Origin: Squalus acanthias
Taxonomy: Eukaryota
Direction: 5' to 3'
Length of the DNA: 64,000 bases
Assembly: GCA_030390025.1 (NCBI GenBank)
Contig: CM059432.1
Span: 83,206,001 to 83,270,000 of the forward strand
Of the stretch, positions 3,575 to 52,820 are shown piece after piece (the stretch's first letter is position 1; the number at the start of each line of letters is the position of its first letter). Position numbers and translations under genes: made by a program. The notes under the pieces are model-generated. The model was not told where the DNA came from. It saw nothing but the letters and a program-made list of their open reading frames with translations, and searched no databases.

Positions 3575-4232
3575 TGTGAAAACAGTCAGCCCCCAAACCA
3601 TATTAAGTATTTGCTTTACACGAGATGTGGACCACCTAACAGGAGGTGTGCCTCCATACACGTGGTAGAAGATTTCCCCATCAACATGTGACTTATTCGG
3701 TGGCTTCTTCCTAATCTTCAAAATAAAGGGACTAAATAGTAAACCTGTTAAATTCTGAAAGTATTATTTTAATTTAATAGTATTTCTTAAAGATTTACAT
3801 CCTCTACAGTTAGTGAATTTTATAGTCCAATTTATGTTGCTCCTGTCCTGTCTCAGTGGAGTGTTCTAACAGTGCTTTAAGCTGAATGTCAACCATGCTC
3901 TTTGCATTGTACTCAGCTTAATAAATGTTTTGGTGTTGTATATTAGGTGGCAAAAGAGAGTACAGGCTGAAGCAATTGCAATAAGGATTGATGTCTCATG
4001 AAACTAATCTCAAGTTGCACCGAGCCATATCAGTGTGCTATACAGACGCGGGAAATATCAGGTTGAATTGGTGGTCTCTGCTGCAGAGATGCTTCAAATA
4101 GCCTCATTGTACCTACACCAAGAATAAAAATAAGATCGTCCAGGGTTCTCATTCTGGATCTCAGTCCAGTCACCCTCGTGGCAAAACACGCATGTATGGA
4201 CGTTAGGTGAGGTCAGGATTAGGTTTAGCTGT

Positions 4233-4471
4233 AATAGAAACAGAAAATGCTGGAAATACTCAGCAGGTCAGGCAGCATTTGTGGAGAGAGAAACAGAGTT
4301 AACGTTTCAGGTCGATGACCCTTTGTCAGAACAGTTCTGACGAAAAGTCATCGACCTGAAACATTAACTCTGTTCCTCTCCACAAATGCTGCCTGGCCTG
4401 ACCTGCTGAGTATTTCCAGCATTTTCTGTTTCTATTTCAGATTTCCAGCATCTGCAGTACTTTGCTTTTGT
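4233..4471. mobile_element. miniature non-autonomous PLE: inverted pLTR pair + tail, 15-bp TSD
   Basis: Arms 4233-4332 and 4334-4436; tail 4437-4471; TSD ATTAGGTTTAGCTGT at 4218-4232 and 4472-4486; hammerhead-like motifs at 4298-4332 (-) and 4334-4368 (+). Confidence 0.85.
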
Positions 4472-4621
4472 ATTAGGTTTAGCTGTGCTGCCCCCAAAAT
4501 GCACCGCTTTTGCTACCACCTGAGAATGGCCATTTTGACAAAAGTATTGGAGAGCTGTCAGTATCCCAGTATAAGTGACCACATTAAGGGGGTGGGGGGA
4601 GAGGGGAAATCAGGAGCAAAG

Positions 4622-7208
4622 AAAGACCCACAAATAGGAACATAAAAGCGGATTGTAAAAGCTTCTACAAGTATGTAAAAAGAAAAAGATTAATGAAAAC
4701 AAATGTAGGTCCATTACAGTCAGAAACGGGAGAATTTATAATGGGGAACAAGGAAATGGCAGAGCAATTAAACACATAGGCCCGTATTTTCCGATCGCAG
4801 GCCTCCCGCGGGCGGAGGCCTGCGATCTGGAAAAATCTGCCCCCTTACCCGAGGGCTCCCCAGACGTGCACAGTTCTGATGCTGGGCCTCACCAAACTCC
4901 AAGTGCGCAGGGCCCACATATCCCAGAGGCGCATGTAGTTCGCAGCGTCCCTGGGATCATGTGGGCCATGGGGAGCCAATCACAGAAGGGAATCTCCCTT
5001 CATACATTTGACAGGAAGACCTGTCAAATATATGAATGGAGATCAATGAAAAAATAGTAAAACTTTAAATAAATAAAAAAAAACCACCATCACATTTTTA
5101 AAATGACTTGAAATTACAATAAATTAAGTATTTTAAACAAAAATTTAATTTATTGAAAAAAATAATTAAAGTATATTCTGGGGCTAAAAATAAACTGTTT
5201 TTAAAAAAGTATTTTTAAATGATAAGTCAGTGAAAATTTAAAAAAAAAACTTTTTTTCTACTCTTATCCTGGTAAAAGCAGGCCTTACGCCTGCTTTTAC
5301 CAGGCGTAAGAATTGTAAGGGTTTTCTGCGGGCGGAGGGTCTCCAAAAAGCAGAACTATCCACCCACAGAGGCCCTTCTCCAGGGCAGCCGGAGGATCTG
5401 TCAAGAGGATTCCTGACAGATCAGAAATGCCGGTTTTCAGCGCATGCCTGAAACCGGCATTTCCGATGTTCCCACCCGTAGGGATCGGAATATCCGGCCC
5501 ATACTTTGGTTCTGTCTTCATGGAAGAAGACACAAATAACTTCCCAGAAATGCTAGGGAACCAAGGGTTTAGTGAGAAGGAGGAATTAAAGGAAATTAGT
5601 ATTAGTAAAAAAATAGCGATGGAGAAATTAATGGGACTGAAAGTCGATAAATCCCCAGGGTCTGATAATCTGCATCCCAGAGGTAGCCATGGAAATAGTG
5701 GATGCATTGGTTGTCATCTTCCAAAATTCTATAGATTATGGAACAGTTCCTGCAGATTGGAGGGTGGCAAATGTAACCCCACTATTTAAAAAAGGAGGGA
5801 GAGAGAAAACAGGGAACTACAGACCGGTTAGCCTAACATCAGTAGTAGGGAAAATGCTAGAGTCTATTATAAAGGATGTGATAACAGGACACTTAGAAAA
5901 TATCAACGGGATTAGACAAAGTCAACATGGATTTATGAAAGGGAAATCGTGTTTGACAAACCTACTGGAGTTTTTTGAGGATGTAACTGGTAGAATAGAT
6001 AAGGGAGAACCAGTGGATGTGGTGTGTTTGGATTTTCAGAAGGCCTTTGATAAAGTCCCACATAAGAGGTTAGTGTGCAAAATTAAAGCACGTGGGATTG
6101 GGGGTAATATACTGGCATGGATTGAAAATTGGTTAACAGATGGAAACAGAGAGTAGGAATAAATGGGACTTTTTCGGGGTGGCAGGCGGTGGCTCGTGGA
6201 GTACCGCAGGGATCAGTGCTTGGGCCCCAGCTATTCACAATATATATCAATGATTTGGATGAGGGAACCAAATGTAATATTTCCAAGTTTGCTGACGACA
6301 CAAAACTAGGTGGGATTGTGAGTTGTGAGGAGGATGCAAAGAGGCTTCAAGGCGATTTAGACAAGTTGAGTAAGTGGGCAAATACATGAGAGATGCAGTA
6401 TAACGTGGATAAATGTGAAGTTATCCACTTCGGTAGGAAAAACAGAAAGGCAGAGTATTATTTAAATGGTGATAGATTGGGAAATGCTGATGTACAAAGG
6501 GACCTGGGTGTCCTTGTACACCAGTCACTGAAAGCAAACATGCAGGTGCAGCAAGCAGTTAGGAAGGCAAATGGTATGTTGGCCTTCATTGCAAGAGGAT
6601 TTGAGTACAGGAGCAAGGATGTCTTACTACAGTTATACAGGGCCTTGGTGAGATCACACCTGGAGTAGTGTGCGCAGTTTTGGTCTCCTTACCCAAGAAA
6701 GGATATACTTGCCATAGAGGGCGTGCAGCGAAGGTTCACCAGACTGATTCCTGGGATGGCAGGACTGTCGTATGAGGAGAGATTGGGTCGACTAGGCCTG
6801 TATTCACTAGAGTTTAGAAGAATGAGAGGGGACCTCATTGAAATGTATAAAATTCTGACAGGGCTAGATAGACTGGATGCAGGGAGGATGTTTCCCCTGG
6901 CTGGGGGATCTAGAACGAGGGGTCACAGTCTCAGGATACAGGGTAGCACATTTAGGACTGAGATGAGGAGAAATGTCTTCACTCAGAGGGTGGTGAACCT
7001 GTGGAAATCTCTACCACAGAAGGCTGTGGAGGCCAAGTCACTGAATATGTTTAAGGAAGAGATAGATAGATTTCTAGACACAAAAGGCATCAAGGGGTAT
7101 GGGGAGAGAGCAGGAATATGGTATTGAGATAGAGGATCAGCCATGATCATATTGAATGGCGGAACAGGCTCGAATGGCCTACTCCTGCTCCGATTTTTCT
7201 ATGTTTCT
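4622..7208 (+). mobile_element. CR1 LINE, 5'-truncated, disrupted ORF2
   Basis: [49 protein letters not shown]; typical 3' UTR ending CTATGTTTCT. Confidence 0.95.
4779..5500. mobile_element. Harbinger-type MITE inserted in a CR1
   Basis: Imperfect 18-bp TIR GGCCCGTATTTTCCGATC / GATCGGAATATCCGGCCC; TSD ATA; the CR1 sequence rejoins across it. Confidence 0.8.
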
Positions 7209-7452
7209 AAATATTGTACTGGGGTATCAGTGAGGAAGTCAGAGATTTTCCACAATCTAATACATTTTCCAAAATAATGCTTCAGCAAGTAATGTCTAAC
7301 TCTGCATAAGAACTTCTCATACAAGGAACAGAGCTTCAAGATGTATTATTTTGAATATTTGGATAACATTGAATAATTAAGCTTGTAGTGGTCAGCACTT
7401 AGTGTTTCCATTAACCACTTACTTAAGCGATTGGAAATATTAGATGTACTCA

Positions 7453-7647
<195 letters not shown>

Positions 7648-8668
7648 TTACCCTACTCATAGTAACGGTATCAAAGACTAAAACATCAGCATTGAAGAGC
7701 CTGATTCTCAACAGTTAATTATAATATATACACAAGTGAAAGCAGTCCAAAAGTATAACTACTGGTGTACCAGCGTGCTCCATCTTCAGATTAGGGCCAA
7801 ATTCAGATACAATTCACAGTATACCAAATTCCTAATCTCAGTGACTGAGCAAGGCAAGACATGGAGGGATTTTTTTTTTTTGAAGTATGCAGATGGATAA
7901 AACCAGACTGCTGCACATAACTTCTAGAAGCTAAATACAGAGGGATGTTCGCAGGATGCCTGTCTGCTCTCATATGAGAAACAGGGTGAGGTTTGGGAAA
8001 TAAAAATAAGTAGCATATTTATGATTTCACTTACAATACACACATGTGAATGACATCTTGAAATTAAAAGATGAAGAAAACTAGAGCAGTCTGGAGAACA
8101 ATGTTCCCTTTAAGCCGCGCAGCTCTCTGGACCTCCTGTGCAGCTGGCTTGTCGGCTTTTCAATGGGAAGAACCGCGCAAGTGCAGTATTTTGAATGGGC
8201 CGCGCAGCCCCTTAAAGGGGCCGTGCACCCAAAAAAAAACATTAATGGGAACATTGCTGGAGAAACGAAAATGATGGGAGAGAACTTAGTGAGCACATTG
8301 TTAAAGACTGGCCTAAAAATGCCACTTGAACATTGAAGGACATGCAGATGAGGTTAGATGAAGTAGGGTGGGAGGAGGCTTGTGTGGAGCATAAACAAAA
8401 GCACAGATCAGTTGGGCCAAATGGCCTGTTTTTATGCTGTAAATTCTATGTAATCTCGCATCAAACCAGCTTGAGCATAGTGCTGACAGCGCTCTTACAG
8501 CTGGCATCACAGGGAATGAGCCACCCCTCTTCATTACCTCCTTCTAGTTGTCCCTCTCAGTCAAACAGTCTCCCAATACTCACTATCTAGCCTCAAACAG
8601 AAATGGCCATTTGGATCATCCCTGTATGAGGCTTCAGAAAGCGCGGAGAAAACATCTGATGTAGTAGT

Positions 8669-9353
8669 AGCCCAGATTCTGCGGCGGTAATGACGATGAA
8701 ACTGTCAGCATTCGCCATCATTACCTCTTTGAAACTGACAGCAAGTTCTGGAGAAAGCGCATGCGCACATAAACGTGGAATTCCAGAAGTTGCTGTCAGT
8801 GATTCTACGCTTCTCCATAGGATACGCTGTTGAACTCCCTGGAGCCGGCAATCTTTGGGAAATCACTGAACTAACGAGAACTTAAAGCTTTTATCCTGTA
8901 ATATTAATCTCATTAAATGGCGGAACAGGCTCGAGGGGCCAAATGGCCTACTCCTGCTCCTATCTTCTATGTTTCTATGCTCTTTAAAAAAAAACCCGAA
9001 AAAGTTAAGCCTTTTGAATGAGGTGTAACTGGATTTTTAAATGGTGTACTGATTCAAAATTACTGCTGAACAACCGTTTTGGCCCTGAAAAAACTAATTT
9101 TATATTTGTGGAATGTCAAATTTTTTTAATTCCATGGTTTTTAAATATAATTTTTCATTTATTTAAATTTAAAAAAAAGTTTATTTATGATATTTCAGCT
9201 GCTAACTTAATCCCATGTGTATGTCCCAATCTTTATTTCGCTCTCTAAAATTATTAAAAAGTGAAGGAAAATCAATGCATTTTACTTTCTGGTTTGCTGT
9301 GAGAATTCTTCAATGATCGTCGTCGCTTCACCGCTGACCGCAAATTCTGGCCC
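8669..9353. mobile_element. Harbinger-type MITE (same family as 58799-61197), containing a short CR1 3' tail at about 8906-8978
   Basis: Termini AGCCCAGATTCTGCGG / CCGCAAATTCTGGCCC; internal sequence is the reverse complement of parts of 60632-61197. Confidence 0.7.
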
Positions 9354-22069: not shown

Positions 22070-22800
<731 letters not shown>

Positions 22801-34368: not shown

Positions 34369-34611
34369 ATAAAATTCTTAAAGGGCTTGACAGGGTAGAT
34401 GCTGAGAGGTTGTTTATAGAACTAGGGATCTCAGTCTCAGAATAAGGGGTCGGCCATTTAGGACTGAGATGAGGAGTAATTTCTTCACTCAAAGGGTTGT
34501 GAATCTTTGGAATTCTCTACCCCAGAGAGCTGTGGATGCTCTGTTGTTGAGTATATTCAAAAATGAGAAGTCGCACAACACCAGGTTATAGTCCAACAGA
34601 TTTATTTAATT

Positions 34612-34650
34612 TTACAAGCTTTCGAAGCAGTTCGCTCCTTCGTCAGGTAA
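34612..34650 (-). ncRNA. minimal type I hammerhead ribozyme motif (inverted copy)
   Basis: Exact reverse complement of 37627-37665. Confidence 0.7.
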
Positions 34651-35461
34651 GTTAGCAATGAGAGAATCTCCCAGAATTCACAATTTAAACCCAGACAAAA
34701 TCTATTCACATTATTCCCTGCAACAAGGAGCACAGTCAAGACAATGAGATGTGTCCCAGGGGGTCCAACGTGTCAAACCACCTGCTGGCTGCATATCCTG
34801 TCAATTTGTGTTCTTGTGTTAGCCTTTTTAAAAAAAAAAAACACCTGGGAAGACCGGCCATGATGTCAAGTCACGTTCTGTATCGTGACATGAACCCGAT
34901 ATCGCGATTGAGGCCATCCTCATGAGTGCGGAACTTGGCTATCAGTTTCTGCTCTATGATTTTGCGCTGTCGTGTATCTCGAAGGCCGCCTTGGAGAACG
35001 CTTACCCGCAGATCCGAGGCTGAATGCCCCTGGCTGCTGAAGTGTTCCCCGACTGGGAGGCAACCCTCCTGCCTGGCGATTGTTGCGCGGTGTCCGTTCA
35101 TACGTTGTCTCAGTGTCTGCATGGTCTCGCCGATGTACCATGCTCTGGAGCATCCTTTACTGCAACGTATCAGGTAGACAACGTTGGCCGAGTCACATGA
35201 GTATGTACCGTGTACCTGGTGGGTAGTGTCCTCACGTGTAATGATGGTATCTGTGTCCATGATTTGGCATGTCTTGCAGAGGTTGCCGTGGCAGGGTTGT
35301 GTGGTGTCTTGGTTGCTGTTCTCCTGAAAGATGGGTAATCTGCTGCGAACGATGGTACTTTTGAGGTTAGGCGGCTGCTTGAAGGCGAGTAGTGGAGGCG
35401 TGGGGATGGCCTTAGCAAGGTGTTCGTCGTCATCGATGACATGTTGAAGGCTGCGAAGAAC

Positions 35462-37408
35462 CCTAAGCTTGACATGTATGCTCAAGCTGTCAGGAAATGC
35501 ATCAACGCCAGATTCATCAGCCGTACTCACAAGACAGTCCAGAATGTCACCCGAGCACAACGCAACGCCATCCACGCACTCAAGACCAACCGCAACATCG
35601 TCATCAAACCAGCGGACAAAGGAGGAGCCATCGTCATACAGAACAGAACGGACTATTGCAAAGAAGCATGCCGACAACTGGACAACCAGGAACACTACAG
35701 ACAGCTACCCGCAGATCCGACCAAAGAACACACCCGCCAACTCAATAGACTGATCAAGACCTTCGATCCAGACCTTCAAAACATCCTACGCGCTCTCATC
35801 CCACGTACTCCCCGCGTAGGAGACTTTTACTGCCTCCCAAAGATACACAAAGCCAACACACCCGGACGTCCTATCGTATCAGGCAACGGAACCCTGTGTG
35901 AGAACCTCTCTGGGTACGTCGAGGGCATCCTGAAACCCATCGTACAGGGAACCCCCAGCTTCTGTCGCAACACTACAGACTTCTTGCAGAAACTCAGCAC
36001 CCATGGACCAGTTGAACCAGGAACACTCCTCGTCACAATGGACGTATCGGCACTCTACACCAATATCCCCCACAATGACGGCATCGCTGCGACAGCCTCA
36101 GTACTCAACACCAACAACAGCCAATCTCCGGACGCCATCTTACAACTCATCCGCTTCATCCTTGACCACAATGTCTTCACCTTCGACAACCATTTTTTCA
36201 CCCAAACACACGGAACAGCCATGGGGACCAAATTCGCACCCCAATACGCCAACATCTTCATGCACAAGTTCGAGCAAGACTTCTTCGCTGCACAGGACCT
36301 CCAACCAACGCTGTACACCAGATACATCGACGACATCTTCTTCCTTTGGACCCACGGCGAAGGATCACTGAAAGGACTACACGATAGCATCAACAGGTTC
36401 CATCCCACCATCAAACTCACCATGGACTACTCCTCAGAATCGGTTTCATTCTTGGACACACGAATCTCCATCAAAGACGGACGCCTCAGCACTTCACTCT
36501 ACCGCAAGCCCACGGACAACCTCACGATGCTCCACTTCTCCAGCTTCCACCCTAACCACGTTAAAGAAGCCATCCCCTATGGACAAGCCCTGCGAATACA
36601 CAGGATCTGCTCAGACGAGGAGGAACGCGATGGACACCTACGGACACTGAAAGACGCTCTCGTAAGAACGGGATATGACGCTCGACTCGTCGATCAACAG
36701 TTCCGACGGGCCACAGCGAAAAACCGCATAGACCTCCTCAGAAGACGAACACGGGACACAACCAACAGAGTACCCTACGTCGTCCAGTACTTCCCCGGAG
36801 CGGAAAAACTACGCCATGTTCTTCGCAGCCTTCAACATGTCATCGATGACGACGAACACCTTGCTAAGGCCATCCCCACGCCTCCACTACTCGCCTTCAA
36901 GCAGCCGCCTAACCTCAAAAGTACCATCGTTCGCAGCAGATTACCCATCTTTCAGGAGAACAGCAACCAAGACACCACACAACCCTGCCACGGCAACCTC
37001 TGCAAGACATGCCAAATCATGGACACAGATACCATCATTACACGTGAGGACACTACCCACCAGGTACACGGTACATACTCATGTGACTCGGCCAACGTTG
37101 TCTACCTGATACGTTGCAGTAAAGGATGCTTCAGAGCATGGTACATCGGCGAGACCATGCAGACACTGAGACAACGTATGAACGGACACCGCGCAACAAT
37201 CGCCAGGCAGGAGGGTTGCCTCCCAGTCGGGGAACACTTCAGCAGCCAGGGGCATTCAGCCTCGGATCTGCGGGTAAGCGTTCTCCAAGGCGGCCTTCGA
37301 GATACACGACAGCGCAAAATCATAGAGCAGAAACTGATAGCCAAGTTCCGCACTCATGAGGATGGCCTCAATCGCGATATCGGGTTCATGTCACGATACA
37401 GAACGTGA
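35462..37408 (+). CDS. PLE polyprotein: reverse transcriptase + GIY-YIG endonuclease (N-terminally truncated, uninterrupted)
   Basis: IKPADKGG, GRPIVSG, TMDVSALYTNIP, GTAMGTKFAPQYANIFM, YIDDIFFLW, Cys linker CHGNLCKTC, and VVYLIRC...WYIGET...R...H...E...GLN. The first 14 codons of the ORF-track entry (35420) come from the inverted arm. Confidence 0.93.
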   Translation, partial: PKLDMYAQAVRKCINARFISRTHKTVQNVTRAQRNAIHALKTNRNIVIKPADKGGAIVIQNRTDYCKEACRQLDNQEHYRQLPADPTKEHTRQLNRLIKTFDPDLQNILRALIPRTPRVGDFYCLPKIHKANTPGRPIVSGNGTLCENLSGYVEGILKPIVQGTPSFCRNTTDFLQKLSTHGPVEPGTLLVTMDVSALYTNIPHNDGIAATASVLNTNNSQSPDAILQLIRFILDHNVFTFDNHFFTQTHGTAMGTKFAPQYANIFMHKFEQDFFAAQDLQPTLYTRYIDDIFFLWTHGEGSLKGLHDSINRFHPTIKLTMDYSSESVSFLDTRISIKDGRLSTSLYRKPTDNLTMLHFSSFHPNHVKEAIPYGQALRIHRICSDEEERDGHLRTLKDALVRTGYDARLVDQQFRRATAKNRIDLLRRRTRDTTNRVPYVVQYFPGAEKLRHVLRSLQHVIDDDEHLAKAIPTPPLLAFKQPPNLKSTIVRSRLPIFQENSNQDTTQPCHGNLCKTCQIMDTDTIITREDTTHQVHGTYSCDSANVVYLIRCSKGCFRAWYIGETMQTLRQRMNGHRATIARQEGCLPVGEHFSSQGHSASDLRVSVLQGGLRDTRQRKIIEQKLIAKFRTHEDGLNRDIGFMSRYRT

Positions 37409-37626
37409 CTTGACATCATGGCCGGTCTTCCCAGGTGTTTTTTTTTTAAAAAGGCTAACACAAGAACACAAATTGACAGGATATGCAGCCAGCAGGTGGT
37501 TTGACACGTTGGACCCCCTGGGACACATCTCATTGTCTTGACTGTGCTCCTTGTTGCAGGGAATAATGTGAATAGATTTTGTCTGGGTTTAAATTGTGAA
37601 TTCTGGGAGATTCTCTCATTGCTAAC

Positions 37627-37665
37627 TTACCTGACGAAGGAGCGAACTGCTTCGAAAGCTTGTAA
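37627..37665 (+). ncRNA. minimal type I hammerhead ribozyme motif (PLE pLTR)
   Basis: TTAC CTGACGA A GGAGC-gaact-GCTTC GAAA GC TT GTAA: stem I TTAC/GTAA, CUGANGA and GAAA cores, 5-bp stem II, palindromic AAGCTT in place of stem III. Confidence 0.7.
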
Positions 37666-38816
37666 AATTAAATAAATCTGTTGGACTATAACCTGGTGTT
37701 GTGCGACTTCTCATTTTTGTCCACCCCAGTCCAACGCCGGCATCTCCACATCATGACGGAGTATATTCAAGACAGAGATTGATAGACTTTTGGATACTAA
37801 AGGAACCAAGGGATATGGGGATAGTGCGGGAAGGTGGAGTTCAGGTATATCAGCCATGATCTTATTGAATGGCGGAGCAGACTCGAAGGGCCAAATGGCC
37901 TACTCCTGCTCCTATTTTTTATGTTCTGATTTAGCAGCAGAACTGTTTACCATTACAATCTGTAGCCTCATGGTGTAGCGCATTCTTCACTCCTCGATCA
38001 CCGTAAAGGCAGGAGACCAATCCTGGTTCAATGCAGGGTGTAGAAAGGTGTGGCAGAAGCAGCATTAGGCATACATTAGAACAAGGTAAAACCATAGTAA
38101 AGCTACTACACAGGACTACATCAGTGCTAAACACTAAAAGCAGAAGGCTATAGACAGAACATAGTACAACAAACAGATCCAATCAAGAATGGTGGTGGAC
38201 ACTTAGGGAACAGGAGGAGGAAGCTCCATGAGCATGTTCTTGCTGAACCATTGTGAAGCCCAGCATGTGAGTGCCAGAGATAAAGCTGAAGCATTTGCAA
38301 GTGGAACAAAAATCGGGTGGGTTCTACAACGGGCAGGTGATCCACTCTTCCAGGTTACTGCCCAGGCGGCGAAGTGGAAAATGACCCCTATTATTTCTAA
38401 GTTATTTTTTAAATATTCAAAATGTATATTCATGCTTGGCCAGTTTTCCAAACTGTATGTGATGCAGCTGCAGTACCATGTTTCATTGCACTACCATTGA
38501 TCCTATCAGTAGCTTCCCTCCATGATTAACCACATTGGCACACTGAATTGAATTATTTAAACATTTTGCTCTGTAAATAAAAAGCCTTTCTAACTTGCAT
38601 ATTTTTTCCATCCAGTTGTTTTTTTGATCTAACATAGTGGTAAAGTAGACAGTTCATAAAAGTAGACAGAAATTTATACTGAATTATCTTTCAATCGAAC
38701 ACAAACCACATTTAAAGTGCTTTTTCATAAACTCCTTATGGAGGAGATTCAGTTCATGGTCAGGACCCATCTCTAAAAAATATGAAACTGCCATCATGCT
38801 GGGTGATGGTTGAAAA

Positions 38817-42650: not shown

Positions 42651-45600
42651 TCATAGAATCATAGAATAGTACAGCACAGAAGGAGGCCATTCGGCCCATC
42701 GAGTCTGCGCCGGCTCTTTTGAAGAGCAATCCAGTTAGTTCCACTCCCCCGCTTTTTCTCCATATCCCTGCATTTTTTGCTCCTTCAAGTATTTATCCAA
42801 ATGCCTTTTGAAGGCTACTATTGAATCTGTATCCACCACCCTATCAGGCAGTGCATTCCAAATCCTAACCATTCGTTGCGTAAAAAATGATTTTCCATAT
42901 GTCGCCTCTGGTTCTTTTGCCAATTACCTTAAATTTGTGCCCTCTTGTTATTGACCCTTCAGCCATTGGAAACAGTTTCTCTTTATTTACTCTATCTAAA
43001 CAGTTCATGATTTTAAACACCTCTATCAAATCTCCTCTTACCCTTCTCTGCTCCAAGGAGGACAACCCCAGCTTCTCTAGTCTATCCACGTAATTGTAAT
43101 CCCTCATTCCTGGAACCATTCTAGTAAATCTCTTCTGTACACTCTCCAAAGCCTTCACGTCCATCCTAAAGTGTGGTGCCCAGAATTGGACACAATACTC
43201 CAGCTGGGGCCAAACTAGTGTTTTATAAAGGTTTAGCACAACTTCCTGGCTTTTGTACTCTGTGTCTCTATTTATAAAGCCCAGGATCCCATATGCTTTA
43301 TTAACTGCTTTGTTAACCTGTCCTGCCACCTTCAACGATGTGTGAACAAGCACCCCCAGGTCTCTCTGTTCTTGCACCCCCTTTAAATTGTAACATTTAT
43401 TGTGTATGGTCTCTCCTCATTCTTCCGAGCAAAATGTCTCACCTCACACTTCTCTGCGTTGAATTTCATCTGCCATGTGTCCACCCATTCCACCAGCCTG
43501 TCTATGTCTTCTTGAAGTCTATTACTATCTTCCTCACTATTTACTATACTTCCAAGTTTTGTGTCATTGGCAAATTTCCAAATTGTGCCCTGTACCCCCA
43601 AGTCCAAGTCATTAATGTGTATCAAAAATAGCAGTGGTCCTGGTACTGAACCTTGGGGAACTGTACTGTATACCTCCCTCCAGTCTGAAAACAGCCATTC
43701 ACCACAACTCTGTTTTCTATCCCTTAGCCAATTTTGTATCCATGCTGCTACTGCCCCTTTTATCCCATGGGCTTCAAGTTTGCTAACAAGCCTACTATGT
43801 GGTACTTTATCAAACGCCTTTTGAAAGTCCATGTATGCAACATCAACTACACTGCCCTCATCCACCTTCTCTGTTACCTCATCAAAACACGATTTGCCCT
43901 TAACAAATTTGTGCTGGCTCTCCTTTGTTATTCCATGCTTGTCCAAAGTGGTGGTTAATTTTCTCCCGAATTATTGTTGCTAAACTGACTGGCCTGTAAT
44001 TTCTAGGTTTATCTTTCTCCCCTTTTTTGAACAAGCATGCAACATTTGCAATCCTCCAGTCCTTTGGCATCACCCCTGTATCTAACGAGGATTGGAATAT
44101 TGTGGCCAGCACCTCTGCAATTTCTACTCTTACTTCCCTCAGCAACCTAAGGTGCATCCCATCCGGACCGGGTGACTTACCTACTATAATTACTGCCAGC
44201 CTGTCTAGTACCTTGTCTTTATTTTTAACACATCCAGTATCCCAGCAACCTCCTCGTTTACCATAGCTTTGGCAAAGTCTTCTTCCTTGGTAAACACCGA
44301 TGCAAGTACTCATTTAGTACCTCAGCCATGCCTTCTGCCTCCACAAATTGTTCTCCATTTTGGTCCCTAATCGGCCCCACTGCTCCTCTGACAACCCTTT
44401 TATTGTTAATATGCCTATAGAAGACCTTTGGATTCCCTTTTATGTTAGCTGACAATCTATTCTTGTACTGTCTCTTTGCCCCTCTTAACTCCTTTTTCAC
44501 TTCTCCTCTGTACTCTTTATATTCATTATGATTCTCCCTTGTATAGGAAGCTGACATCTATTCTGACGATACCACCAGTGCTTCCGATATGTCTTTCTTT
44601 TTCTTCAACCGAGGATTCCCCTTCACCGTGGTTGGCAGGGCCCTCGACCGTGTCTGTTCCATTTCCCGCACTTCTGCTCTCACCCCTTCCCCTCCCTCCC
44701 AGAACCACAATAGGGTTCCCTTGTCCTCACCTTTCACCCCACCAGTCTCCACATTCAACGGATCATCCTCCGCCATTTCTGCCATCTCCAGCGTGATCCC
44801 ACCACCAAACACATCTTCCCCTCCCCTTTCAGCATTCTGAAGGGACCGTTCCCTCCGTGACACCCTGGTCCACTCCTCAATCACCCCTTCCCTGTCCCAC
44901 GGCACCTTCCCGTGCAAGGGCAGGAGATGCAACACCTGCCCTTTTACCTCCTCCCTTTGCATTGTCCAGGGCCCCAAACACTCCTTCCAGGTGAAACAGC
45001 GATTTACTTGTGCTTCATCCAATTTAGTATATTGTATTCACTGCTCATGATGCGGTCTTCTCTACATTGGGGACACCAAATGCAGATTGGGTGACCACTT
45101 TGCAGAACACCTCCATTCAGTCTGCAAGCGTGACACCGAGCTTCTGGTCACCTGTCACTTTAATTCTCCGCTCTACTCCCACTCTGATCTCTTTGTCCTC
45201 GGCCTCCTACTCTGTTCCAATGAAACTCAACGTAAGCTCGAGGAACAGCACCTCATCTTTCGATTAGGCACTTTACAGCCTTCCGGACTCAACATCGAGT
45301 TCAACAATTTCAGATCATAACCTCTGCCCTCATTTTTTCCAGACAGCCGCTGTTGATGATTCTGCTATTCCCATTTACACCTCTTCTAGAACCATCTTTT
45401 GTTTCTTTACTTGTCCCATTACCATCTCCTTTTGCCTTGCACCATCATCCCTTTTGTCATTTAATCTCTCCTACCTTCCACCCTATCACAGACCTTCCCT
45501 TTTGTTCTTTCCTCTCCTCCCCCCTTTCCCTGCCTCTGCACTTGCTTAAAACCTGTTATATCTCTAACTTTTTCCAGGTCTGTTGAAAGGTCATCGACCT

Positions 45601-49273: not shown

Positions 49274-51074
49274 GGCCTAGAAATTCAGGGGTTTAGTGCC
49301 AGCTGTTAAGGCCGGTTTTGTGGAAAAAATGGCATCGGATGCCATATTGGTGAGGGCAAAAAAGTGGCATTGTTTCGCTTCGTCTGACGCAGTCGTTAGG
49401 CCATTAACATATTCAAATAAAGAGCCGAATGCCTGCTTCTGCTCCTCTTGCAAACTTGGCTTGCGTCTGAGGCAGCCAACGCCAGCTTGTTCACTCCTGG
49501 GAAAACAAACGTTAAACAGCGCCGAACGAAAATAAGGTAAGTACTTACCATTATCATCTGACTCCTGACTCCGACCTCCAGGCCCGCTCCAATCCCCCCA
49601 AACCCCGATCCCGACCTCCCCCACCTATCCTGGCCCCAACCTTCCCCTCCCCACCCCCCATCCTGGACCCGACCTCCCCCCCCCCCATCCTGGCCCTGAC
49701 CTCCCCCTCCCCACCCCCCATCCTGGCCCCGACCTCCCCCTCCTCCCCCCACACCCTCCCCCCATCCTGGCCCCGACCTCCCCCCCCCCCCCCCCCCCAT
49801 CCTGGCCCCAACCTCCCCCCAGACCCTCCCCCCATCCTGGACCCGACCTCCCCCCCACCCCCCCCATCCTGGCCCCGACCTCCCCCTCCCCACCCCCCAT
49901 CCTGGCCCCGACCTCCCCCTCCTCCCCCCACACCCTCCCCCCATCCTGGCCCCGACCTCCCCCCACCCCCCCCCCCCCCCATCCTGGCCCCAACCTCCCC
50001 CCAGACCCTCCCCCCATCCTGGCCCCGACCTCCCCACACCCTCCCCACATCCTGGCCCCGACCTCCCCCTCCCCACCCCCCATCCTGGCCCCGACCTCCC
50101 CCTCCTCCCTCCACACCCTCCCCCCATCCTGGCCCCGACCTCCCCCTCCTCCCCCCACACCCTCCCCCCATCCTGGCCCCGACCTCCCCACACTCTCCCC
50201 CCATCCTGGCCCCGACCTCCCCACACTCTCCCCCCATCCTGGCCCCGACCTCCCCACACTCTCCCCCCATCCTGGCCCCGACCTCCCCCCACCCCCCCCA
50301 TCCTGGCCCCAACCTTCCCCCTCCTCCCCCCATCCTGGCCCCGACCTCCCCCTCCTCCCCCCACCCTGGCACCCCCCTCTCCCCCCCTCCTTCCTCCCCC
50401 CTCCTGGCCCCGACCTCCCCCCCCCCCCCCCCACAACCTGGCCCCGACCTCCCCCGCCCGCCCCCCCCCATCCTGGCCCCGACCTCCCCCTCCCCCCCAT
50501 CCTGGCCCCAACCTCCCCCTCCCACCCATCCTGGCCCCAACCTCCTCCTCCCCCCATCCTGGCCCCTCCCTCCCCCTCCTCCCCCCTCCCTCCCCATCCT
50601 GGCCCCCCCTCCCTCCCCATCCTGGCCCCGACCTCCCCCTCCTCCCCCCACCCTGGCACCCCCCTCTCCCCCCCTCCTCCCCCCTCCTGGCCCCGACCTC
50701 CCCCCCCCCCCCCCCCCACAATCTGGCCCCGACCTCCCCCGCCCGCCCCCCCCCATCCTGGCCCCGACCTCCCCCTCCTCCCCCCATCCTGGCCCCGTCC
50801 TCCCCCTCCCCCCCATCCTGGCCCCAACCTCCCCCTCCTCCCATCCTGGCCCCAACCTCCCCCTCCCACCCAACCTGGCCCCGACCTCCCCCTCCCACCC
50901 AACCTGGCCCCGACCTCCCCCGCCCGCCCCCCCCCATCCTGGCCCCGACCTCCCCCTCCCCCCCATCCTGGCCCCAACCTCCCCCTCCCACCCATCCTGG
51001 CCCCGACCTCCCCTCCCCCCCCAACCTTCCCCCATATCCTGACCCCGACCTCCCCCTCCCCCCCTTTCTAGGCC
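49274..51074. mobile_element. Harbinger-type element (GGCCTAGAAA TIR) carrying an expanded minisatellite
   Basis: TIR GGCCTAGAAA / TTTCTAGGCC; TSD ATC/CTC; 5' end resembles 32099-32145. Confidence 0.72.
49600..51064. repeat. C-rich (G-rich on minus strand) minisatellite, unit about 22-37 nt with core CCATCCTGGCCCCGACCTCCCC
   Basis: Dozens of tandem variant copies with variable C-runs. Confidence 0.95.
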
Positions 51075-52820
51075 CTCCTCTCTCTGCTGGCCTTAAGTCT
51101 GAAATGAGTTTAGACGGTCTCGATTCAGATTTTAGCAGATGTGAGCCCATAGCACAGAACAGCCCACAAGTTAGCCTTAAATGTGCAGTCTGATTTGAGA
51201 GTTCACTTGCATGGGTAGTGTGGGAAATTGAAATGGAATAGATGGTGCTCTCCTGAGGCTGGAGTTAAGGCACATTGCTGAAGTAATGTAGGGGAGCTTT
51301 AGGGGATACGTTATACCTTCCCTTGAGACTGGATGCCCAAAATGGAAAAATGTTTGATTTCTAGCATTGTGCTACCATGCAGAGCACACTTAAAAAAAAA
51401 AAAGTTTTCAACTGTGTTCCCAGGTTAGGGGGCAGAGGGGGAAACAAATAACCAGGACTCTTGAGCTTGCTGGCTATCCAGTGAGCTCCAGCAGAAAGCG
51501 CTGGTCTGTGGATGTTGTGCGAGGGCAGGTTTGGACTTGGCTGTGATACCCTCATGGGTAAATAGCTTGCCAACACTCACTATTTGGGCACACACATGAC
51601 CACTTGGGTGCTGTATAAGCTGTGGAACCGTACATCTACAAGACAGGAGGAGAAAATTGAAGGTAAAGAAAGAAGTTTTCATTAATAAAATCTGAGTTGA
51701 CTGGGTGGCACAGAGGGATCAGAATCTAGGCCAGACTGATGGAATGAAAGTCTCTTGCTGGCTATAACAGTCCAAGTGAAATAAATTTAGATAATCTGTA
51801 CCCAGTTCTTAGTTGGGTCAGATATATATTTATCCAATGAACATTTTTTCAAACAAATCAATTAGTTAAACTCACTCTGTTGAGGCTCACCTGATTGCTC
51901 TGTGAGTAAACATACTGTGTGGAATGAATTTCAGGAAGTTCGCTCGTTCAATCCCTGATCTGTGCTGAATTAGTTTATGTCAGCAGTAGGGACATTACCA
52001 TTGACCTCTTTGTCCCTGTGTGGGGGAGAGAAAACCTGGGTCAGGAGTTCCCAAAAGTGTGCAAGTGTGGAGCAAGGTGAGAACCGAATTGGGCTTGGCT
52101 TTGACATCCCACAATATAGGTTCTGATCTGGGGCCACTTCTGTTCACTTTACACGTCAATGAAATTTGAGATGATACTAAAATGGGAGGCATAATGAATA
52201 ATTCTGAGGATCAAAGGAAGCTACAAGTGTATATTGATAAGATGGTGGACTGAGCAAAAAATGTATCAGATGGAATTCAATGTCACTAAATGTGAGGTGG
52301 TAAAAAAAACAACAGTTATAATTATACTTTGAGTGGGAGACTGCTGGATACTGTGGAAGAGAAGACAGATTTGGGAGTTCAGGTTCACAAGGCATGAAAA
52401 GCAGCAGCTCAAGTGATAAGGCCATAAAGAAAGCTAATGTAATCCTGGGTTTGATGGGAAAGAAGTATAGAATATTAAAGTCAAGATGGAATAGTGAATC
52501 TATATAAAACCGTTGAAGTTGGAGTACTGTGTATAGTTTTGAAAGGGTGGGCATAGAAGGTGTACAGCACAGATTCACTAGGATACTGCCATGTATGAGG
52601 AAATACAAATACAAAGAAAGTTTTCAAAAATGGGGCTGTTTTTGTTACAGAACATTGGAGATTAAGGGGTGATTTGATAGAGGTGTTTAAAATTATGAAG
52701 GAATGAGCCAGAGTAGATAGAAACAAACTGTTTCCAGTGATACAGATAAGATTAAATGTAAGAGGTTTAGGACAGAGAGCAGGAGAAACTTTTTTACACA
52801 GAGGGTTGTGAGTCTGCACT

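Follow-up and report, generated by a model that had tools for sequence, protein, structure and literature searches.

A minimal type I hammerhead motif in the pseudo-LTR of an inverted Penelope-like element insertion in Squalus acanthias

A 64,000-nt stretch of contig CM059432.1 of Squalus acanthias (hereafter, the window) contains two identical copies of a 39-nt hammerhead-like motif, which lie on opposite strands within a single insertion of a Penelope-like element (PLE). This arrangement raises the question of whether the motif is a ribozyme and, if it acts only as a dimer, what role it can have in an insertion where the two copies face each other.

The motif and the insertion that carries it

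The features of the insertion are as follows (window coordinates).

34371..37924 (34371-34560 and 37759-37924), plus strand: LINE 3' fragment split by the PLE, from repeat-family comparison
34549..34560, plus strand: left target-site duplication (TSD), 12 bp
34561..35461, minus strand: inverted arm, tail-less, reverse complement of 36818-37719
34612..34650, minus strand: mirror copy of the motif in the inverted arm, letter-identical; predicted cut between 34616 and 34615
35462..37758, plus strand: direct arm, 5'-truncated (ORF remnant, 3' UTR/pseudo-LTR and tail), 98.4-98.5% identity to both units of the tandem copy L038
35462..37408, plus strand: open ORF remnant with reverse transcriptase (RT), C-x4-C-x2-C linker and GIY-YIG-type endonuclease (EN)
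37627..37665, plus strand: minimal type I hammerhead motif, 39 nt, descriptor match
37627-30/37662-65, plus strand: stem I, TTAC/GTAA
37631-37637, plus strand: core C3-A9, CTGACGA
37638, plus strand: extra A, between 9 and 10.1
37639-44/37648-53, plus strand: stem II, GGAGC(G)/(T)GCTTC
37654-57, plus strand: G12-A15.1, GAAA
37657-60, plus strand: stem-III palindrome, AGCT
37661, plus strand: H17, end of the CUU triplet 37659-37661; predicted cut between 37661 and 37662
37720..37758, plus strand: 39-nt tail, on one arm only, containing an ATG at 37753-37755
37759..37770, plus strand: right TSD, 12 bp

On re-reading, the coordinates, parse, extra A, CUU triplet and cut after 37661 given in the initial annotation were all exact, and the mirrored motif is present on the minus strand with the identical 39 nt. 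The assignment to the minimal type I hammerheads of PLEs is supported by the core, the extra A, the G10.1-C11.1 pair (G37639-C37653) and the palindrome. A type I descriptor matched the window at these two sites only, which represent one observation because both belong to one inverted duplication. Simulation of 60 windows of 64 kb (order-3 Markov model, both strands searched) gave the descriptor a background of 0.17 (loose) or 0.017 (strict) hits per window, and no hit once the palindrome was required. None of the 6 matches at E<=1 in an Rfam covariance-model scan was a hammerhead, and folding of the 39-mer as a monomer was not unusually stable (z -1.44). Judged by its letters, the motif is the known tiny hammerhead sequence of PLEs and is ordinary for these elements.

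The annotated stem-III palindrome is present, but the conserved unit is the 4-mer AGCT (15.1-16.1) and not the 6-mer AAGCTT. Position 17 is T in 74 and C in 17 of the loci tallied (two-base loci being counted under both bases), and neither A14 nor H17 is paired in the active hammerhead core; therefore, the 6-mer is not the palindrome that has been kept.

The inverted duplication (904/902 nt) is 99.7% identical and differs by 1 substitution and one 2-nt indel in a T run. The ORF remnant aligns to aa 242-892 of the 892-aa ORF of L038 with 99.1% identity, and because the N-terminal ~240 aa are absent, the window copy is a dead-end copy. The remnant contains an RVT_1 match (Pfam, E 1e-8), and the translation of its C-terminal part reads VVY...CSKGC...YIGET plus two His, which are GIY-YIG/CCHH-type motifs. 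Pfam detected nothing in the 151-aa C-terminus; relatives that aligned over nearly the whole query in the protein search carry PF01541. The nearest named protein relatives are from shark (91% and 84%). The RT-to-EN linker, CHGNLCKTC, fits the CX2-5CxxC linker that defines the Neptune and Nematis clades (PMC8557442), and its sequence points to a Neptune/Nematis type; none of the 120 protein matches listed was a clade-named reference. The layout of an endonuclease-bearing PLE was also found, with a pseudo-LTR (pLTR) tandem in L038, an inverted 5' copy, a tail within the 30-40-bp range of such elements and a TSD.

The interrupted LINE, which we take to be of CR1 type from its likeness, contains a recurrent target. 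The same site in the LINE 3' part was struck in separate events by PLEs of different subfamilies, and the 12-13-bp TSDs are nearly identical (the window copy, L017, L023, L024, L055 (= L115) and L169). The antisense of the stem I/C3 junction (37625-37633) is a perfect 5' splice-site consensus, CAG/GTAAGT, in the window's subfamily, and this sequence could serve as a cryptic donor in host introns. A hunt for host genes using short motifs found only a first coding exon at 22400-22620 on the minus strand, presumably TRAM1-like, which is ~12 kb away from the PLE insertion and for which Pfam gave no match. A long G/C-skewed tandem repeat (49550-51090; units of 11-33 nt) is adjoined by what may be an exon, whose splice donor would lie near 49535.

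Abundance and conservation of the motif in two PLE families

A degenerate pattern of the motif's family (family 1) had 58,342 exact matches in the 3.7-Gb assembly, and the reversed-pattern control had 0. The window's own variant had 1,995 matches genome-wide and the PLE tail sequence 42,028. The hammerhead pattern of a second PLE family had 50,303 matches (control 0), and decayed motifs of this family lie back-to-back in the window.

4298..4368: family-2 motifs, 4298-4332 on the minus strand (G8 -> A) and 4334-4368 on the plus strand (altered stem II; ACAT in place of ACGT)

The initial annotation ascribed to this second family the same layout with different stems. Neither window copy holds the whole layout, which is a composite, yet it is right genome-wide. 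The end of a PLE ORF was found directly upstream of the family-2 motif in 4/20 fetched loci, and also at 44817-45293 of the window, with 30-37% identity to family 1. The proteins of the two families are about 30-40% identical, and family 2 has R10.1-U11.1 after the extra A, unlike the G10.1-C11.1 of family 1. Same-strand runs of family-2 motifs with ~1.6-1.7 kb spacing (G000:C1:6988689-6992103 and 7055870-7059142) are possibly tandem non-autonomous units or the result of segmental duplication.

Conservation was analysed in 138 arms that were chosen by their tail and not by the ribozyme. A recurrent second allele (an alternative base in at least 5 loci) was found at 1/11 core positions versus 26/48 other positions (Fisher p 0.007), and at 19/41 non-core positions when 7 junction-prone upstream positions were left out. 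All four bases occur at N7 in the same arms. In stem I, 96 of 98 arms keep the third pair, as C-G (58), T-A (36) or T-G (2), and 2 arms have it unpaired. Among 143 descriptor hits, the extra nucleotide is A in 142, and positions 15.2/16.2 are GC in 113, CG in 24 and other in 6; these covariation counts represent a few lineage changes repeated many times. Family 1 has GC at 15.2/16.2 and family 2 has CG, both of them self-complementary. The covariance check on family copies, which had been suggested with the motif, was run in this way, and it revealed a near-invariant core in the 138 arms and stem pairs that change compensatorily. The proposal that structure is kept while sequence changes is borne out by the third-pair swaps in stem I and by the GC versus CG difference between the families. 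Compensatory 15.2/16.2 variants within family 1 amounted to 6 double changes genome-wide and were treated as noise. The sequence 3' of the motif is likewise well conserved in the 138 arms, and conservation is therefore not limited to the ribozyme. The CTAAC shortly before stem I resembles a branch point but is absent from other subfamilies, and was therefore set aside.

At five loci, stem I or U16.1 is disrupted by a rare change that both arms, or both tandem units, have in common.

G000:C2:35065603/35065679
C2:122517930/122519371
C5:76982340/76982428
G000:C2:47204884/47205213
G000:C3:84049036/84052566

The common change would reflect the same source copy or arm-to-arm conversion, and loss of an intact motif may not have prevented mobilisation.

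Inverted pairs, tandem copies and arm ends

It had been concluded that dimerisation in cis is impossible in this insertion. The geometry stands, with one descriptor match per strand, but the arrangement is nothing special. An unselected sample, picked by the tail and covering the first 7.4 Mb of contig C1, comprised 99 insertions (leaving out tandem L038 and 2 segmental duplicates). Inverted pairs bounded by a TSD make up 64 of them, the direct arm is very short in 2, and 33 could not be parsed. Opposite-strand hammerhead pairs are already mentioned in PMC4209133, and impossibility in cis leaves room for dimers in trans. Cofolding of the motif with its own complement yielded -73 kcal/mol, and read-through RNA would likely pair both arms, burying the motif in a 900-bp hairpin. 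The TSD is 12-13 bp in 44/62 unselected pairs (L078-L176), forming a sharp peak, and is longer than the 8-10 bp given for rotifer PLEs. Among selected inverted pairs, a TSD is present in 44/45 and exactly one tail in 45/45, as predicted by the two RT start sites, equal to the tail, that are described in PMC11167929.

The tandem copy L038 (G000:C1:5492500-5500500, minus strand) consists of units that are 99.7% identical, with an uninterrupted ORF flanked by two same-strand motifs 3,046 nt apart. Its tail runs into the ORF; the ATG at 37753-37755 of the window corresponds to the start codon of the following unit's ORF, 91 nt downstream of the predicted cut. The location of the motif in the PLE 3' region, as annotated, is therefore correct for the window copy, but in L038 this repeat forms the 5' leader of the ORF that follows. 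L038 appears to be a young, source-like arrangement, and tandems of this kind would be where a cis dimer acts.

The ends of arms were compared with the predicted cut. A pattern for ends exactly at the cut had 362 matches, of which ~75 of the first 100 were truncations when sorted by eye, 13 of them joined via stem-I-type microhomology. Two neighbouring control positions had 382 and 276 matches (~54 and ~46 truncations in the first 100, also by eye). Extrapolation from the first 100 matches each yields ~270 copies ending at the cut versus ~206 and ~127 at the controls (1.3-2.1 times), which is no clear spike, and the bin containing the cut holds only 1/74 arm ends. Cut-site truncation was therefore rejected as in vivo proof of cleavage.

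By contrast with that bin, the bin 0-11 nt upstream of C3 holds 30 of the 74 arm ends that have a defined junction (mode 7), and the 12-nt bins on either side hold 11 and 5 (p 1e-5). These ends are mostly from one older subfamily (27/61), in which position 7 upstream of C3 is the A of TCACTT, a sequence resembling the initiator consensus. Among the first 100 arms of the window's variant, 14 stop no more than 27 nt upstream of C3, 12 of these no more than 12 nt (by eye). An initiator-like TCACT is present in a rotifer pLTR (PMC3846280), and the PLE promoter lies in the pLTR (PMC2377424). The ends just upstream of the motif fit run-off at an RNA start in the pLTR, and their templates were thus likely uncut.

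Nineteen runs were considered for expression. None of ~10 million raw polyA RNA reads in run X19 match the stretch, and hence none mark the cut or the start site; contigs of runs X1 and X2, whose RNA origin is a guess, cover the stretch with no ends visible, and run X9 yielded 1 piece.

Some inversion junctions join the cut site of one arm to C3 of the other via stem I complementarity (e.g. G000:C1:200198635), and others lie on stem II or AGCT palindromes (L131, L165).

Proposed pairing of the motif, its alternatives and known systems

Taken together, the motif is probably a minimal type I hammerhead of the pLTR that would cut after 37661 only when paired with a second copy via AGCU, and in this insertion it is likely an idle passenger. 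In PMC4209133, hammerheads with the same features were inactive as monomers and weakly active as dimers. When two copies were cofolded, they were predicted to join through a helix at the palindrome, at -22.3 kcal/mol against -17.2 kcal/mol for the two as separate monomers; the full double-hammerhead fold reached only -10.5 kcal/mol and is weaker than competing folds, under nearest-neighbour energies that ignore core contacts. Hammerhead cleavage needs protein, and is dispensable for insertion in vitro, in PMC11167929. By analogy with other PLEs, the transcript of a tandem source copy would carry two motifs, and these would form a slow, probably protein-assisted double hammerhead that releases unit-length RNA. 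The PLE protein would then nick both DNA strands 12-13 nt apart, and reverse transcription would begin at two sites bracketing the tail, leaving two head-to-head arms, one with and one without the tail. With the two start sites downstream of the cut, any arm that keeps the motif intact would have been copied from uncut or re-ligated RNA, and short arms may represent run-off at the 5' end of RNA started at the pLTR promoter.

A different reading holds that the palindrome mainly pairs two PLE RNAs in trans, like a retroviral dimer-initiation loop, with a protein dimer copying one arm from each and cutting being secondary or late. The cofold preference for the palindrome helix agrees with this, as does PMC11167929, where the protein is predicted to dimerise and both strands are shown to be extended. 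The most direct support comes from insertions in which the two arms within one TSD carry different recurring stem II/loop II haplotypes, namely 4/35 readable pairs (L100, L119, L132 and L159) and, with L129 read by eye, 5/36 single-TSD insertions. Half (5/10) of the arm-to-arm indels in 4,422 nt of overlap sit at a single position in loop II; for L129 and L132, this indel is linked to a second diagnostic base. A single cDNA that folds back and primes itself, the model of PMC3846280 for PLE inversion, would yield identical arms, and the different haplotypes thus argue against simple fold-back for those events. However, 31/35 pairs share a haplotype, whereas a fraction of 0.84 would differ by random draw from the pool. 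Three of the five mixed cases differ by the loop indel alone and could reflect RT slippage, and later gene conversion, or one tandem RNA with unlike repeats, could account for all of them. Moreover, a protein dimer could gather two RNAs without a palindrome, and Naiad PLEs make tailed inverted insertions without canonical hammerheads (PMC8557442). That some insertions used two RNA templates is quite possible, if somewhat doubtful; our literature search, in which most subscription papers lay outside coverage, found no report of two-template PLE insertions. That the palindrome mainly serves such pairing seems unlikely, and the same low probability applies to its strict form, in which each inverted insertion derives from two RNAs, one per DNA nick, that are paired by palindromic stem III as a kissing signal. 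If this were true, the mirror copy would be the footprint of a trans dimer and not of failed dimerisation.

It is less probable still that a single copy becomes active on its own when the PLE protein binds the RNA and refolds it, making a dimer unnecessary. The hammerhead of an Anolis PLE was cut only in the presence of protein, but the results and discussion of PMC11167929 do not separate monomer from dimer, and the loopless 15.2/16.2 positions, which a single copy could not close, are self-complementary in both families (GC, CG). Finally, the idea that the motif no longer cuts, being kept as a promoter or protein-binding element or riding along with the repeat end, draws on hammerhead mutants that insert in vitro nonetheless (PMC11167929), thriving PLE clades without the motif (PMC8557442), the lack of a spike at the cut and the conserved 3' flank, but is very improbable given the fixed catalytic positions alongside variation, in keeping with hammerhead rules, at N7, at H17 (U or C only), in loop II and in stem pairs, in two families with such divergent proteins.

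With >100,000 copies and a young family that includes a tandem source-like copy, this genome offers test material for the role of PLE hammerheads. The arm ends upstream of the motif and the mixed-haplotype arms are measurable signals on which RNA is copied and how the inversion arises.

The minimal hammerheads of metazoan PLE pLTRs (PMC4209133) share with the shark motif the type I core, the 4-bp helix I, the extra nucleotide, G10.1-C11.1, the loopless palindromic 15.2-16.2, the pLTR location, many solo copies and opposite-strand pairs. They differ in helix II (5-6 bp here versus 7-8 bp in Schistosoma) and in copy number (>100,000 for two families here versus ~4,000-9,000 in coelacanth and Xenopus); sharks are not named in the results and discussion of that paper, whose supplements may list cartilaginous-fish motifs. 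The animal non-LTR retrozymes (bioRxiv 10.64898/2026.07.22.740005), present in one sampled chondrichthyan, likewise have a type I hammerhead and PLE ancestry, but they are non-coding head-to-tail arrays, and the inverted arms and ORF remnant set the shark insertion apart from them. Endonuclease-bearing PLEs with inverted pLTRs (PMC3846280, PMC8557442) share the head-to-head arms, one-arm tail, 8-13-bp TSD and partial tandems; self-priming was proposed there, which the mixed-haplotype arms misfit for some events. Poseidon of Anolis carolinensis (PMC11167929) shares the tail with two end points, the hammerhead upstream of it and copies from unprocessed RNA. The Poseidon ORF has its start within stem II, and reverse transcription begins 111-118 nt into that ORF, whereas the shark PLE has its ATG 91 nt downstream of the cut, at the tail end, and a Neptune/Nematis-type linker.
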